From Alphaproteobacteria bacterium (lineage in GTDB: Bacteria > Pseudomonadota > Alphaproteobacteria > RF32 > CAG-239): 64,000 bases of DNA. This document shows, one piece after another, positions 2,221 through 60,475 of the stretch. Where the stretch lies: the NCBI GenBank assembly GCA_017475525.1, contig JAFVFH010000034.1, forward strand, positions 4,375-68,374, read 5' to 3'. Each line of letters opens with the position of its first letter. Positions within the stretch are counted from its first letter, which is position 1. A program made the position numbers and the translations under genes. Under the pieces are notes generated by a model that saw nothing but the letters and a program-made list of their open reading frames with translations, did no database searches and was not told where the DNA came from.

Positions 2221-2420
2221 ATATAATCAAACGATAAAAAAATCACTTTGAACCAAGATTCAAAGCGGGAGTTGTAAGAACTGCAAGTATTCAGTCGAAG
2301 TTATTCGCCACACAATGTGCTTATATCCTTCCCTCCCTTTCATAGGAGTTAATACTTGTCGTGTCTTACAAACACCGCAACCATTTTGGTTACATTTTTT
2401 ATTTTGCCATACCTCAATCC
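2221..2420 (-). promoter_or_regulatory. conserved structured 5' leader (copy 1 of 10) with terminator-like hairpin upstream of RBS
   Basis: mRNA-sense: UAACCAAAAUGGUUA palindrome, GGUGU..ACAC hairpin, ACUCC-loop-GGGAG hairpin, UAUAAGC, CGAAUAA, then cgctttgaa-tcttgg-ttcaaagtg hairpin (plus 2244..2267) + U7 about 24 nt before ATG. Confidence 0.5.
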
Positions 2421-2483
2421 AAAAGTCAAACAAAAAAAACCGCCTTTGAAAATCAAAAGCGGTTTACCTTTATGTTTGGAGAA

Positions 2484-2687
2484 CTACAAAATCTGAATGT
2501 CGCCGGCGGCAATGCGACCTCTGTCATCATACGGCTCATAGCTGACGCGCTGTCCGTCATTTAAGTGCCTGATGCCTTTTTCTTCTAATTTTGTGATATG
2601 CACAAAAATGTCTTTGCTTCCATCTTCCGGCTCAATAAAACCATACCCTCTTCTATAATTAAACCATTTCACAGTCCCAGTAAACAT
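2484..2687 (-). CDS. cold-shock protein CspA family
   Basis: 67 aa, GTVKWFN..RGYGFI...DIFVH motifs. Confidence 0.9.
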   Translation of the reverse strand: MFTGTVKWFNYRRGYGFIEPEDGSKDIFVHITKLEEKGIRHLNDGQRVSYEPYDDRGRIAAGDIQIL

Positions 2688-2815
2688 TGGTATTCTTTCC
2701 TTTCTTTCAAGTTAAAGTTTCAGGCTGATAGGCTGCCTCTATAATCAAAAGCTAATATAAGACATTTTTTATAAATTGTCAATCAAAAATTGATTGTATA
2801 TAATATATTATACTT

Positions 2816-3157
2816 TTAGTTGTGTATAACTTGATCAAAAGAAAAGGCCTCAAGCGTATTTTTGATATATTCGGTGCGATTTGTCGGAGAATGCGTTTTT
2901 TCTAAATAGAAGTTTAAGATATCCATAATCTCGTTTTGATATTCGGGCTTTAGTTTGGCTATGACACAAAGTTCATAAACAGCCGCCTCAAAAACTTGAT
3001 CTTTTTTATTTTTCAAATCCTCTGCAATTAACAAATATGCGGGTGTAATGCCGTTTTTTTTGAAAGCACGTGTTTTGAGATCAACCGCATCGTTATCCGA
3101 CGAGCCGAAAATCATTTCCCAAAAAGAAGATATTTTTTTGAGCATGTGCGCCTCCAT
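2816..3157 (-). CDS. hypothetical protein
   Basis: 113-aa ORF, no recognisable motif; start may be the internal Met at aa 5. Confidence 0.35.
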   Translation of the reverse strand: MEAHMLKKISSFWEMIFGSSDNDAVDLKTRAFKKNGITPAYLLIAEDLKNKKDQVFEAAVYELCVIAKLKPEYQNEIMDILNFYLEKTHSPTNRTEYIKNTLEAFSFDQVIHN

Positions 3158-3210
3158 TTTATTATTTATATTTTGTTTTTGCTTTTACAACAAAGATATT
3201 AAAAAATATT

Positions 3211-3239
3211 TGACAAGCTTATAAAAAAAGCGTATATAC
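3211..3239 (+). promoter_or_regulatory. sigma70-like promoter of tRNA-Gln
   Basis: TTGACA (3211-3216) - 17 nt - TATATA (3234-3239), about 17 nt upstream of tRNA 5' end. Confidence 0.5.
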
Positions 3240-3256
3240 CACTCAACTTAAAAAAT

Positions 3257-57570: not shown

Positions 57571-57733
57571 CTTTTAAAAATAAAAAAGACAGCACCGTTT
57601 GCGGTGTTATCCGTCACCGCCTAATCTAAAAGCCGTTTCAAAGCTCCGCGCCTTAAAGGCACTTGATACAAGCAAATCTCATATCCGTTTTTAATTATGG
57701 ATGATTTTTCATCAAATGTCAAAAGAAATTTTT

Positions 57734-58987
57734 TTATCTTTCGTTGTGAAAGCCGAATTCAAAATTTCGACTTTGAAGTTCTTTTTGTTTTTGTTCTTTT
57801 AATGCCCAAACTTCATCGCGTCCGTCAAGTGTTACGATCTTTGAAAAAAGCTCTTGAAAATATGGCTCGTTCTGCCACTTTTGATAAATGTCTTTCATCT
57901 TTTCAAAAATCTCTTTTACCTCTTGTTTTTTCTTTTTATCTAAATCATCCGCAATATCCAAAGCACTATCTTCTTTGAGTTTTTTCAATGACGTCCAGAT
58001 ATTATAATTGCATATCATTGAAACAGAAAAGCTATCAAGCACACAAACGGAATTTAAAATGCGTGTGTTTTTATCGACTTCCTCAAGCGGTTTTAATTTT
58101 TCTTTGATGCATATCAAACGTTTTTTTTCAATATCTGCATTATACCTTGCTTTTTTGCGATATTTAAGCATCTCATACGACCAATACGCTTTCCCCAAAA
58201 TGCGATAACTTTTGGCTTTGCTCTTGAGCAAGAAATAACGAGGCACATAAGTATCTCCTTTTTTGATTTTTTCAAATTCGTCTTTAGAATACCCGTATTT
58301 TTCGACCAAGCTCTTGGTGAAAAAAATCATCTTTTTAAAATCAAGCCTGCCATCCTTTTTAGAAAATTCCCGCACAACATTTTTGCGGCCTTTTCTACGG
58401 ATTTCTTTGATAAGTGCCAATTCTATCGGAAGCGAAATATAATATACCAATTCCGCTCTTTTATCGTTTAATTTCGAAATGCCGTCGGCGATACGTGCCA
58501 ACCGGCGCTTTTTATATTCCAAAACACTGTCTGACTTTAAGAGTAAAACCATTGCCGAAAATGTGTTTGCATGCGTTTCTGAAAGATATTTTCTATATTC
58601 ATCTCGATACCGCATATCAAAAATATTATATTTGAACTGATACAAATGCGCCGCCTCGTGATAGACGACATATTTATCATTGTCCTCATCAAGACCTGCC
58701 ACAACAACAAGCTTGTTTTTGTTGCCATATTTGCCGTTCATTGTATAGCCCGAAAGCTTGGCTTCCTCTTGGTGTTTGATTTCAAACCCGCCTGCATAAG
58801 CCGGCTCGACATAATACTTTATTAAAAGCACATCCAACGAATAACCCAAACGCCCCATTTCACGGATAAAAATATCTGCGTCCTTTTGCGCATCCAACGT
58901 GTGAATATCATCATAACAAAGCCAATGCGCATTTGTTTCAGCGCATATATCGTTCAAATCGTTGATGACATCTTTGGCTTTTAACAT
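57734..58987 (-). CDS. hypothetical cytoplasmic protein with HExxH motif (putative metallopeptidase-like)
   Basis: 417 aa, YHEAAHLYQ; no signal peptide; Lys/Glu-rich C-terminal half. Confidence 0.4.
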   Translation of the reverse strand: MLKAKDVINDLNDICAETNAHWLCYDDIHTLDAQKDADIFIREMGRLGYSLDVLLIKYYVEPAYAGGFEIKHQEEAKLSGYTMNGKYGNKNKLVVVAGLDEDNDKYVVYHEAAHLYQFKYNIFDMRYRDEYRKYLSETHANTFSAMVLLLKSDSVLEYKKRRLARIADGISKLNDKRAELVYYISLPIELALIKEIRRKGRKNVVREFSKKDGRLDFKKMIFFTKSLVEKYGYSKDEFEKIKKGDTYVPRYFLLKSKAKSYRILGKAYWSYEMLKYRKKARYNADIEKKRLICIKEKLKPLEEVDKNTRILNSVCVLDSFSVSMICNYNIWTSLKKLKEDSALDIADDLDKKKKQEVKEIFEKMKDIYQKWQNEPYFQELFSKIVTLDGRDEVWALKEQKQKELQSRNFEFGFHNER

Positions 58988-59111
58988 GATGCCAATTTAA
59001 CAAATTTTATATTTTTTGTCAATACATTTAAAACAAAAAAACACCCTCGCCAAAAAGCGAGGGTTTACTTACCAAGCATAAAAATTATATTTTTATCAAA
59101 GGAGAAAAAAT

Positions 59112-59312
59112 ATGAAAAAAAGAATAAAAAATTCCCCTGATTTTCACATCACGGGAATTGAAGAAGACAGATTAATAGCCGTGCAAGACGGCGGACTTGA
59201 CAACCGCCAATCCGTTAATTGCGATATGTATAATTTCGGCAATATGGAAAACCTGCCCGACAGCGACCGCGCGATGATAAGCAACAATCAAACTTGCAAA
59301 GAACATCTCTGA
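59112..59312 (+). CDS. small hypothetical protein (66 aa)
   Basis: AAAGGAG RBS 8 nt before ATG; divergent from the HExxH gene; no similarity recognised. Confidence 0.35.
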   Translation: MKKRIKNSPDFHITGIEEDRLIAVQDGGLDNRQSVNCDMYNFGNMENLPDSDRAMISNNQTCKEHL

Positions 59313-59314
59313 CG

Positions 59315-60280
59315 TTACTTGTACCTTAACTTAAAAGTATTTCCGGTTTTTTTTGAAACCTTTTCTGCTTCATCGATGGTATAAATGCGCTTTGGGATAT
59401 AGTTGCCTGAGGCTAAATCATTAAGTGAAGCATATGTTTTACCACCTGCCTTTATCTGCCCGTTTTCTATGCTGTATGGAATGACTTTCGGGGTACCTGA
59501 CAAACCCTCAAAAGAATTGCCACACGTCATACCCGCCGGACAATAAATGGTATTCAGCCCGGATCCATTAAAAGCGTAGGGGTTAATTCCTGTATAAACA
59601 CCATTTCTTTGGGTATACCCCAAAATATTCCCATTACTGTCTAAAAGCGAATCGGATATAACAATGCTTGTCAACCCTGTGGCACCCTTAAAGGCCTGCG
59701 TTCCAATTGTTTGCACACCGGTCAGGTCAACGCTTGTCAATTTCGTGGCACCCTCAAAGGCATAAGCCTTGATTGTTTGCACACCGGTCAGGTCAACGCT
59801 TGTTAAACCCGTGGCACCTGAAAAGGCAGCCGATTCAATTGTTTGCACACCGGTGAGGTCAATGCTTGTCAAACCCGTGGCACCCTGAAAGGCATCCATT
59901 CCGATTGTTTGCACACCGGTCAGGTCAATGCTTTTCAAACCCGTGGCTTTTATAAAGGCACCCGGTCCGATATCCACATTGCCGGATGTTTTAAGCGATG
60001 TAACACCTCCAGGAAAAGTTGACATAGATTTGCCACTGAAAGCCTTATTCGGCACGGTGGCGGCAGTGCTCTCCGATCCTTTTGTGCCATAAATGGTCAT
60101 TGTTTGATTGCCCTCATCACCGCTTAAAGCATAGTATGTGCCGGAAGTTCCGATTTGAACGCAATTGCTTGCACCGACTGCGGTGGCGCAATTTTCGTAT
60201 GATGATGTACCATCCGCTCTCGCCATTGTGGTAAAAGCTGTGCTAAGCATTAATACAAATATAAATTGACTTTTTCTCAT
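59315..60280 (-). CDS. secreted leucine-rich-repeat protein, paralog 4, with conserved C-terminal tag
   Basis: signal peptide MRKSQFIFVLMLSTAFTTMARA; perfect 22-aa repeats GLTSIDLTGVQTI..AF.GAT; C-terminus PKRIYTIDEAEKVSKKTGNTFKLRYK; GGAG RBS. Confidence 0.8.
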   Translation of the reverse strand: MRKSQFIFVLMLSTAFTTMARADGTSSYENCATAVGASNCVQIGTSGTYYALSGDEGNQTMTIYGTKGSESTAATVPNKAFSGKSMSTFPGGVTSLKTSGNVDIGPGAFIKATGLKSIDLTGVQTIGMDAFQGATGLTSIDLTGVQTIESAAFSGATGLTSVDLTGVQTIKAYAFEGATKLTSVDLTGVQTIGTQAFKGATGLTSIVISDSLLDSNGNILGYTQRNGVYTGINPYAFNGSGLNTIYCPAGMTCGNSFEGLSGTPKVIPYSIENGQIKAGGKTYASLNDLASGNYIPKRIYTIDEAEKVSKKTGNTFKLRYK

Positions 60281-60475
60281 ATTTTTTCTCCAATTCTACA
60301 AAATAAAAAATCACTTCAGAAAAAATCTAAAGTGGGAGCCGTAAAACTGTCTTGGACAGACTCTGTTATTCGTCACATGATGTGCTTATCTCCAGAACTC
60401 CCTATAAAGGAGTCAATCCAAGAAGGCGTTTTACGAACACCGCAACCATTTTGGTTACATTTTGATTATGGCACA
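60281..60475 (-). promoter_or_regulatory. conserved structured 5' leader (copy 10 of 10)
   Basis: mRNA-sense UAACCAAAAUGGUUGCGGUGUUCG, GACUCC-UUUAUA-GGGAGUU, GAUAAGCAC, CGAAUAA, GUCUGUCC-AA-GACAG, cactt-tagattttttctg-aagtg + U-run. Confidence 0.5.

Follow-up and report, generated by a model that had tools for sequence, protein, structure and literature searches.

Riboswitches of the cyclic diguanylate classes c-di-GMP-I and c-di-GMP-II control pilin and adhesin genes through terminators, as in the case of pilA1 of Clostridioides difficile, and both c-di-GMP-I and T-box elements occur in many copies per genome. Parallels in protein-dependent attenuation are provided by LicT and SacY with the ribonucleic antiterminator (RAT), by PyrR, and by the ANTAR regulators. 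Here, a structured leader RNA is described that precedes ten genes in a 64,000-nucleotide stretch (the window) of contig JAFVFH010000034.1 from an Alphaproteobacteria bacterium, which is part of a 73-kb metagenome scaffold. Sequence comparison indicates that these leaders belong to an undescribed, widespread family of putative terminator leaders with two states, which comprises two sensor classes, type I and type II, and is specific to gut Alphaproteobacteria. The novelty lies in the RNA family, and the regulatory type, a conditional attenuator, is already known.

Analysis of the gene content of the window with Pfam and regular expressions revealed exactly four genes for BspA-type leucine-rich repeat (LRR) proteins, four for pilin-like proteins (recognized by the N_methyl motif GRSMVEMLG), and two for YpsA-like proteins, with one leader (c1 to c10, Table 1) ahead of each. 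This census agrees with an earlier, sequence-only reading of the window, which had placed ten copies of a leader ahead of these genes. Read in the mRNA sense, the ten spans showed a common order of elements, and all sub-elements listed in that reading were recovered: the 5' hairpin with compensatory change, GGUGU..ACAC, ACUCC..GGGAGU, AUAAG, CGAAUAA, CUG..CAG, and the terminator with its U-run. The spans had been placed at or near the true positions but were too short for three copies, for which the 5' part was missing (c2 starts at 17065, c4 starts at 25505, and c9 extends up to 57662). The minimum free energy (MFE) folds of all ten leaders displayed a common multi-helix architecture with a final stem and U-run, and at all ten sites the intrinsic terminator ends 20 to 45 nucleotides (nt) ahead of the ribosome-binding site. 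The core pattern ATAAG..GAATAW occurred 11 times in the window compared to 2.06 ± 1.56 expected occurrences, and 8 of the 11 were leaders.

Relatives were searched for in one genome per species with the exact pattern GGAG-N8-ATAAG-N5-25-CGAATAA-N6-CTG-N6-10-CAG. The scan revealed at least 114 loci, with about 7 chance matches estimated. The matches listed came almost all from gut or rumen metagenome-assembled genomes (MAGs) named 'Alphaproteobacteria' (e.g., CAG:495, 'Azospirillum sp. 51_20', and Ca. Scatocola), a lineage that we take to be the RF32/CAG-239-type gut lineage. Among the matches listed, single MAGs carried at least 6 loci, and the window carries 10 in 64 kb. Scanning the window against Rfam 15, with its families for T-box, c-di-GMP-I/II, ydaO, PyrR, and alphaproteobacterial sRNAs, returned two tRNAs only at the gathering thresholds and no match overlapping any of the ten leaders at an E value of ≤5, as expected from the earlier statement that no known Rfam class was recognizable. 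No description of the leader was found in the literature on riboswitches, structured RNAs, and XRE genes of RF32 and gut Alphaproteobacteria.

A covariance model (CM) of the type I leader was built from 129 copies, and covariation was analyzed in an alignment of the 122 copies that the model matched in the window and in 99 fetched loci. The common structure, termed fold A, opens with a 5' hairpin (P0). It continues with two long-range helices, P1, in which GGNGU plus about 8 nt pair with about 8 nt plus CUCC, and P2. Fold A further contains the hairpin P3 (ACUCC..GGGAGU) and the helix P4, in which a stem carries an invariant internal loop (5'-GANAUAAG opposite 5'-CGAAUAA) and a variable tip, and it ends in the terminator. 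Of all cells in the alignment, 92.4% were paired according to fold A, compared to 67.4% after shuffling and at most 51% with slid partners. Compensatory changes on both sides were present at 43 of 49 pairs (1,389 compensatory cells), none of 500 shuffles reached any of the observed measures, and covariation was found in all 8 helices. The two P4 stems were paired in 98% and 97% of cases. The terminator covaried at all 9 stem pairs and was followed by a T-run in 121 of 127 pattern instances. Duplexes of the P1 strands (b:b') had a mean energy of -6.5 kcal/mol within the same sequence and -1.7 kcal/mol across sequences, and those of the P2 strands (c:c') had energies of -7.4 and -1.2 kcal/mol, respectively. 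P1 and P2 are copy specific because the same-sequence duplexes are far stronger than the cross-sequence ones. The mean column identity among the leaders was 43 to 44%. The covariation is overwhelming, and the leader is a structured cis-regulatory RNA with conserved secondary structure; the selection on RNA structure proposed earlier is thus borne out.

Comparison of local pairings revealed a second set of helices. The hairpins GGUGU-loop-ACAC (P1a) and CUG-loop-CAG (P5), which the sequence-only reading had presented as simple modules, are real pairings, but their loops are strands of the long-range helices. In P1a, the GGNGU segment (a) contributes to the stem and the 5' strand of P1 (b) makes up the loop; the loop of P5 is the 3' strand of P2 (c'). 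The a:a' stem of P1a was perfect over 5 bp in 108 of the 122 copies. At its position 3, the pair types U-A (68 copies), A-U (40 copies), U-G, G-C, and C-G were found (4 to 6 types in all), and in 73 copies the base at this position faces a U-U mismatch with the 3' partner (x2) in P1. P1a is independently supported because position 3 covaries locally while it is mismatched in P1. P5 was 96.9% paired and nearly invariant, with a change from G-C to A-U in divergent copies obtained independently of the search pattern. Since a hairpin loop of 6 to 8 nt cannot also be a helix of 7 to 8 bp, P1a and P5 should be mutually exclusive with P1 and P2.

Complementarity to the 3' arm of P3 (x', NNGGAG) is found both in the 5' arm of P3 (x1) and in x2, which comprises the CUCC that ends P1 and the next 2 to 4 bases, i.e., the start of the terminator 5' arm. 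Partners in x' and x2 change together across subfamilies (GGCGGAG/CUCCGCC, GGUGGAG/CUCCACC, GGAGGAG/CUCCUCC, and GAGGGAGC/GCUCCCUC). The two x':x2 positions past GGAG/CUCC were paired in 95.8% of cases, compared to 67.6 ± 1.7% after permutation, with 5 pair types. The extension of the helix past CUCC had a mean length of 2.76 nt compared to 1.22 ± 0.08 nt after permutation, and it overlapped the terminator stem over 2 to 4 bp in 95 of the 122 copies. x':x1 had mostly G-U pairs where x':x2 has G-C pairs, and therefore the competitor that is made later is the stronger one. In a divergent subfamily (window c6, L039:99-315, and L006:6250-6456), GGAG is replaced by GGAA(G) in a and x' and CUCC by (C)UUCC in a' and x2 in a concerted manner; c6 itself has GGAAG/CUUCC for GGGAG/CUCC and CUA/UAG for CUG/CAG. 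Leader c2 has CCCGCC as x1, GGUGGG as x', and CUA/UAG in P5, and its x2 (CCCGCC) is the terminator 5' arm itself. The two-partner logic appears plainest in this copy, in which GGUGGG can pair with the upstream CCCGCC or with the CCCGCC of the terminator arm. The otherwise complete invariance of GGAG and CUCC is explained by this multi-partner network of a, a', x', x1, and x2. A pseudoknot in which all helices coexist was considered and ruled out sterically, because P5 together with P2 would need a 0-nt loop across an 8-bp helix and x':x2 would span the stacked P1 and P2 without a linker.

The attenuator proposed in the sequence-only reading gains support from these data: the base of the terminator stem is shared with an alternative helix that covaries (x':x2), the terminator lies between the sensor and the Shine-Dalgarno (SD) sequence, and the conserved alternative helix is exclusive with the terminator, although the overlap is short. 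Fold A with an intact terminator was the MFE structure in 73% of copies. For the full leader, forcing the x':x2 pairing (fold B) cost +9.5 ± 4.9 kcal/mol; the cost was +6.8 kcal/mol before the terminator 3' arm was made. Besides P1a and P5, the forced fold contained a terminator whose stem was shorter at the base. According to these energies, the gap between the folds could be bridged by a ligand, by a protein, or by kinetic trapping. Because fold A is favored energetically, termination should be the default.

Scanning the window with the type I model with filters off gave 8 strong matches and nothing else above noise; six copies scored between 115 and 133 bits, followed by c6 (57.6 bits) and c2 (46.1 bits). 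The remaining leaders, c4 and c9, scored 14.2 and 14.0 bits, respectively (E about 0.15), which is at noise level. A metagenome scan with a c4/c9-specific pattern revealed seven more loci of this kind (L116 to L122), none of which was detected by the type I model. The claim of ten copies of one leader therefore holds for the shared scaffold and fails for the single family, which was replaced by two classes. Folding and alignment of the nine type II sequences revealed P0, P1/P1a with covarying b:b', P2/P5, P3 (CCCCGA..UCGGGG), x2, and the terminator, together with one or two extra hairpins. The type II x2 (CUCUCCGACC) is complementary to x', and in c4 the x' segment GGUCGGGGAG can pair with the x2 segment CUCCCUGACC over 10 bp. 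Unlike type I, type II has a P4 of the form CUUAUGG-CGAAUGUUCA-stem-AAAGG-CCAUAAG and a P5 stem of AGUCAU/AUGAUU.

The signature ccUAAg/uGAagg describes a GNRA-like module with a cross-strand AAA stack that makes A-minor tertiary contacts, the UAA/GAN motif (PMC2615604; motif from Lee, Gutell and Russell 2006). Its sequence criterion (xUAAg / yGANx' flanked by Watson-Crick pairs) agrees with the type I P4 loop (xUAAG/CGAAx'), in which A162 U163 A164 A165 G166 faces C191 G192 A193 A194 U195; only the sequence signature was compared. As judged from this signature, the motif may be present twice in P4 in a pseudo-symmetric arrangement (GAN/UAA and UAA/GAA). However, U195 and A162 would belong to both putative copies, which therefore cannot be canonical at the same time. 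The loop residues G159 and A160 were kept in 96 to 99% of copies, though they were not forced by the search pattern. A kink-turn or sarcin-ricin reading of the loop was rejected, since the strand order does not fit and UAA/GAN fits better. P4 and P5 are taken as the sensor module because they change together between types I and II while the scaffold is kept; the invariant P4 loop and the P5 stem are the probable site of effector recognition. Because P4 and P5 lie side by side only in fold B, this fold is taken as the effector-bound state, and this direction of switching is slightly more likely than not.

Taken together, each leader is probably the 5' part of its own transcription unit and a conditional two-state switch of transcription attenuation. 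The predicted unit consists of a sigma-70-type promoter, a structured leader of 160 to 230 nt, the intrinsic terminator, the SD sequence, and the gene. In the termination-permissive fold A, the computed MFE structure, segments a and b would pair with b' and x2 as P1, which would enclose P2, P3 (x1 CUCCUU with x' GGGGAG), and P4 and leave the adjoining terminator free to form. In the antiterminated fold B, segments a and b would fold on themselves as P1a, CUG would pair with CAG as P5, and x' would move from x1 to x2, i.e., to CUCC and the first 2 to 4 bases of the terminator 5' arm. A three-way junction of x':x2, P4, and P5 would then close, and the terminator stem would lose its base. Fold A, and with it termination, would be the default, and an effector (a small ligand or an RNA-binding protein) that recognizes the UAA/GAN-like P4 internal loop and the P5 stem would stabilize fold B and turn the gene on. 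In type II (c4 and c9), the scaffold is kept and the P4 loop and P5 stem differ; these leaders presumably respond to another effector.

Several points weigh against this mechanism. We infer conditional termination solely from covariation, and the switching direction and the effector's role from comparison of the sequences. The search pattern forced GGAG, ATAAG, CGAATAA, CTG, and CAG, whose invariance thus partly reflects ascertainment; about 8 copies are independent of the pattern. Because many of the aligned sequences are related, there were fewer independent events than the cell counts suggest. Competition by the antiterminator involves no more than 2 to 4 bp at the base of an 8- to 12-bp terminator, and the predicted fold B keeps a shortened terminator hairpin. 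In the energy model, fold A is by far the more stable fold. Its 5' competitor strands are also the first to be transcribed, and fold B would therefore need kinetic help or an effector. Finally, the regulated genes (regulators and adhesin-like and pilin-like proteins) hint at no metabolite.

The position of the element was analyzed with respect to promoters and genes. A -35/-10 pair was found upstream of 112 of the 122 copies, and in 103 of the 122 the -10 hexamer ends 6 to 7 nt ahead of the first paired base of P0; the family also has an A/T-rich stretch upstream of the -35 hexamer. The AUAAG box, suggested earlier as a possible -10 element, does not serve as such: it sits in the internal loop of a hairpin, 90 to 100 nt downstream of the conserved -35/-10 pair. 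An SD sequence and a start codon follow the terminator at 20 to 49 nt in 100 of the 122 copies, and an SD-preceded open reading frame (ORF) lies within 300 nt of 109 of 131 pattern instances. Most instances that lack such an ORF lie in truncated loci, are interrupted, or are the first of two leaders in tandem. With its fixed position and orientation between a predicted promoter and a coding gene, the element is a leader and not a generic repeat of the BOX/RUP type, a possibility that the sequence-only reading had named as its own refutation.

Analysis of the downstream genes revealed that the leader precedes secreted BspA-type LRR and pilin-like proteins in the window lineage and small XRE/Cro-type helix-turn-helix (HTH) proteins (73 to 113 amino acids) in most other MAGs. 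The small XRE-type HTH genes look like a large paralogous expansion. Those downstream of leaders at L002 to L115 encode a shared C-terminal ..FYGK.I.IELVD segment, and the leader-HTH units are monocistronic and scattered among housekeeping genes (e.g., murA, lepA, rpsF-rplI, and pheT). Some leader copies are followed by genes for Cys-rich secreted proteins. None of the downstream genes (XRE HTH, BspA LRR, pilin-like, YpsA, and Cys-rich secreted) was associated with the metabolism or transport of a ligand, which is still compatible with a second-messenger riboswitch. The shared regulon of unrelated genes claimed from the window alone is supported and is widened to small XRE regulators.

Two kinds of effector can be considered for the two-state leader. 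As a tentative reading, the three-way junction of P4 and P5, or the four-helix fold A, would be the aptamer of a small-molecule riboswitch for a global signal such as a cyclic dinucleotide, and type II would have altered specificity. The complex and strongly covarying fold, the invariant loop nucleotides, and the terminator as expression platform agree with this, as do the many copies per genome, the tandem leaders at L013, L052, L063, and L079, and the presence of two sensor variants on one scaffold; the pseudo-symmetry of the loop (GA(N)AUAA / GAAUAA) could make it suitable for a symmetric ligand. However, the downstream genes show no link to the metabolism or transport of a ligand, the conserved 'pocket' is small, and the P4 loop fits a generic tertiary-contact motif with no obvious binding site. 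In an equally tentative reading, a dimeric RNA-binding antiterminator or a terminator-promoting protein would bind the pseudo-symmetric P4 loop and thereby control a large regulon, with a paralogue for type II. The most conserved part of the leader is one hairpin with an invariant pseudo-symmetric internal loop, variable stems, and a variable tip, as is typical of protein operators; the targets are regulators and surface proteins and not metabolic genes; and the variability of every hairpin loop argues against a trans-acting RNA partner and is compatible with a protein. Against a protein, no candidate was identified, the Rfam models of RAT, PyrR, and ANTAR targets gave no match, and P4 does not overlap the terminator, unlike RAT.

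The remaining explanations dispense with a switch. A constitutively structured 5' untranslated region without an effector, which would confer stability, act as a fixed 'leaky' terminator, or attenuate kinetically in response to speed or temperature, would treat the alternative pairings as folding intermediates. The preference for fold A by 7 to 10 kcal/mol without ligand and the possibility that P1a and P5 are transient cotranscriptional intermediates speak for this explanation, which is nevertheless unlikely: compensatory change among as many as five segments (a, a', x', x1, and x2) is rare in transient intermediates, and the invariant P4 loop and its change together with the P5 stem between types point to specific recognition. 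Somewhat more improbable still are stand-alone small RNA genes of about 170 nt, acting in trans or sequestering a protein, with only incidental read-through. In favor of such genes are the separate promoter and the strong terminator of each copy, the high stability of fold A, whose ends are protected by hairpins, and the lack of a following ORF in some tandem copies (L063 and L075). Yet an SD sequence and start codon on the same strand follow the terminator so regularly (100 of 122 copies), no second promoter is evident in the short spacer between terminator and start codon, all loops and most helices vary so that no conserved seed for pairing in trans is left, and the x':x2 covariation has no role in such a gene. 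Hardly credible are intergenic repeats or mobile elements of a generic kind (BOX/RUP/REP/MITE-like), and likewise a 5' region copied passively with duplicated genes. Copy number and the scattering of the whole promoter-leader-small-HTH unit among housekeeping genes would fit, but orientation and the distances to promoter and start codon are fixed, pairing is kept at low sequence identity (with the 1,389 compensatory cells), at least four unrelated gene families are linked to the element, and no terminal inverted repeats or target-site duplications surround the unit.

Table 1. Positions of the leaders and their sub-elements in the window.
Feature	Position	Strand	Remarks
Leader c1, type I	2233..2394	-	P0 to U-tract; ahead of LRR gene 807-2210; CM 115.2 bits
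c1 element map	a 2372-2376, x1 2343-2348, x' 2333-2338, P4 2296-2332, CUG 2292-2294, CAG 2281-2283, x2 2267-2272, terminator 2243-2267	-	
c1 predicted promoter, TTGACT-17-TG-CAAAAT	2401..2429	-	promoter scan; start site inferred
Leader c2, divergent type I	17065..17224	+	ahead of YpsA-like gene 17244-17837; CM 46.1 bits
Leader c3, type I, exemplar for sub-elements	18924..19084	-	ahead of LRR gene 17853-18890; CM 128.4 bits; MFE fold; element map
c3 P0 5' hairpin, GUAGCCGAGUUGGCUAU	19068..19084	-	family-wide covariation at all 8 P0 pairs
c3 segments a (GGUGU) and b (UUUCAAGAC)	19054..19067	-	either long-range P1 (5' strand) or local hairpin P1a (stem and loop)
c3 segment c, 5' strand of P2	19041..19050	-	c:c' duplex energies
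c3 P3 hairpin: x1 (CUCCUU), loop, x' (AGGGAG)	19024..19038	-	covariation and element map
c3 P4, a stem with an invariant internal loop (GANAUAAG / CGAAUAA) and a variable tip	18985..19023	-	covariation in both stems
c3 CUG - c' - CAG	18970..18983	-	P2 3' strand flanked by d and d', or local hairpin P5
c3 segments b' (P1 3' strand) and x2 (GCUCCCA)	18956..18969	-	x2 partner is a (fold A) or x' (putative fold B)
c3 intrinsic terminator (CACUUUGG..UCAAGGUG) and U-tract	18924..18957	-	terminator scan; all 9 stem pairs covary family-wide
Leader c4, type II	25505..25695	+	ahead of YpsA gene 25721-26194; common scaffold in MFE fold; 14.2 bits with type I model
Leader c5, type I	31986..32146	-	ahead of pilin-like gene 31347-31961; CM 131.1 bits; element map
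Leader c6, divergent type I	38078..38249	+	ahead of pilin-like gene 38260-38874; CM 57.6 bits
Leader c7, type I	43087..43246	+	ahead of pilin-like gene 43265-43894; CM 133.4 bits; element map
Leader c8, type I	48530..48698	-	ahead of LRR gene 47233-48498; CM 119.9 bits; element map
Leader c9, type II	57435..57662	-	ahead of apparently disrupted pilin-like gene 56508-57411; fold and alignment with type II homologues; 14 bits with type I model
Leader c10, type I	60301..60458	-	ahead of LRR gene 59315-60280; CM 131.2 bits; element map

Leaders also occur in tandem, 200 to 500 nt apart (L013, L041, L052, L063 with three copies, L064, L075, L076, and L079). In some tandems two complete leaders precede one gene, and the upstream copies at L063 and L075 are not followed by an ORF. 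Four type I leaders are interrupted between b' and x2 (L053:~480-800, L032:~3680-4130, L022:84-287, and L090:945-1152). The insert of about 300 nt at L053 and L032 has terminal inverted repeats (GGCCCCTAAATCCCCCTTAAA ... TTTAAGGGAGATTTAGGGGC) and looks like a miniature inverted-repeat transposable element (MITE); a different insert is present at the same b'/x2 spot at L022 and L090. Searching viral contigs revealed one chance match and one genuine relative of high G+C content, and a phage origin was rejected, as the family is not phage-borne. The genuine relative (L123:6481-6640, minus strand; IMG/VR UViG_2848865092) is related to the type I core, has 61% G+C, and contains a, b, c, x1, and x'. 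Its P4 has UAAUAAG/CGAAUAA, its x2 is CUCCCGCC, extra hairpins are present, and no U-tract follows the last stem. By its sequence, it may combine the same sensor with a different expression platform.

Further observations concern the ends of the leader. In the window lineage, the predicted transcript begins with a start codon directly followed by a stop codon (AUGUAA, AUGUAG, or UUGUAG), and this pair makes up the 5' side of P0 (2377-2396, 19068-19087, 43084-43092, 48682-48701, and 60442-60461); it is lacking in other lineages and is probably coincidental. A leader peptide or mini-ORF was rejected, since inspection by eye showed that neither NUG-N3-UAA after x' nor AUG-UAA at P0 is conserved family-wide. 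Sequestration of the SD sequence by b' and x2 was rejected as well, because the complementarity is generic (GGAG versus CUCC; -11.07 versus -10.20 kcal/mol, and -4.13 versus -4.11 kcal/mol for b' alone). An A-tract immediately 5' of the SD sequence shows complementarity to the terminator U-tract in many copies of the HTH type (UUUUGUUUU..AAAACAAAA, or UUUCUUUU..AAAGAAA), as seen in alignment columns 329 to 347 plus the next 40 nt and, for example, at L069:7280-7330 and L020:1440-1480. The specificity of this hairpin was marginal (5.70 compared to 5.38 ± 0.11 after permutation). Strong intrinsic terminators of 13 bp lie directly upstream of the c1 and c3 promoters (2437-2465 and 19130-19160, both minus strand), and the promoter-leader-gene unit is therefore insulated from the preceding gene.

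Analysis of the genes of the window revealed a shared C-terminal tail, KRIYT[IV][DE]EA..(N)TF.[IL][RK]Y[RK], in leader-associated BspA-type LRR proteins (807-2210, 47233-48498, and 59315-60280, minus strand). The same tail, which may serve in sorting or anchoring, is present at L017, L034, L049, L067, L070, and other loci. Exactly at the start codon downstream of c9 (56508-57420, minus strand), an insert of about 110 nt lies between the two copies of an 18-nt direct repeat (GGAGAACAGGTATGAATAA), and the long ORF that follows contains two GRSMVE pilin N-terminal motifs; this pilin-like gene looks disrupted or partly duplicated. A conserved block of tRNA-Trp, secE, and nusG (44328-45192, minus strand) adjoins bipA (45286-47103), and the window is therefore ordinary chromosome and no mobile island.

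If the leaders are conditional two-state attenuators, they would define a large regulon controlled after initiation in gut Alphaproteobacteria, represented here by MAGs only, and would tie many small transcription factors to surface and adhesion proteins. On a speculative view, they would be riboswitch-like leaders of a new class, in which two variants of the sensor read a global intracellular signal, e.g., a second messenger. One shared leader would then co-ordinate dozens of stand-alone small XRE regulators with LRR adhesin-like, pilin-like, and SLOG (YpsA) proteins in these uncultured bacteria; the architecture would be unusual in that the long-range helices are pre-stored as local hairpin loops. 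A small molecule or second messenger as effector would make this a new riboswitch class, and a protein would make it a new system of antitermination whose target set is unusually large. As an orphan switch, the family has strong comparative support for both conformations, which is rare among candidate motifs. The alignment of more than 120 sequences, two sensor variants for comparison, and clear mutational predictions are available as resources, and the covariance model can be used in annotation to mark the starts of transcription units in MAGs of gut Alphaproteobacteria.

Comparison with known terminator/antiterminator/anti-antiterminator leaders (riboswitch platforms and the trp, pyr, and T-box attenuators) revealed a promoter-proximal location with an intrinsic terminator just ahead of the SD sequence as a common feature. 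As in these systems, x' has a choice of two mutually exclusive partners, of which one extends into the 5' arm of the terminator, and an upstream segment (a, in P1) captures the competitor, which gives a three-layer logic. In contrast to them, the family has no leader peptide, T-box sequence, or tRNA-like specifier, and all of its loops are variable. The antiterminator overlaps only the bottom 2 to 4 bp of the terminator, and one strand of each long-range helix is first stored as the loop of a local hairpin (P1a and P5). T-box control, one of the options raised in the sequence-only reading, is contradicted by the lack of an Rfam match, the variability of all hairpin loops, and an x':x2 helix without a conserved bulge. 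The c-di-GMP-I and c-di-GMP-II riboswitches (RF01051 and RF01786) are likewise multi-copy per genome, but they differ in their helices and conserved nucleotides, and neither matched a leader at E ≤ 5. The antiterminator hairpins bound by proteins (RAT with LicT, SacY, or BglG, and the ANTAR targets) resemble P4 in that recognition could take place at one imperfect hairpin whose internal loops are conserved and pseudo-symmetric, and the outcome proposed here, read-through of the adjacent terminator, is the same. They differ in that P4 does not overlap the terminator, a dual arrangement of hexaloop hairpins is absent, no Rfam match was obtained, and the leader regulon is far larger than is usual for RAT or ANTAR systems. 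In Caulobacter, paralogous XRE regulators control adhesin development (PMC10688885). By its abstract, this system resembles the present one as an expanded alphaproteobacterial set of small XRE proteins linked to surface adhesion; control as presented there is based on transcription factors and a leader RNA is not described, whereas in the gut Alphaproteobacteria the link is a shared cis RNA element.

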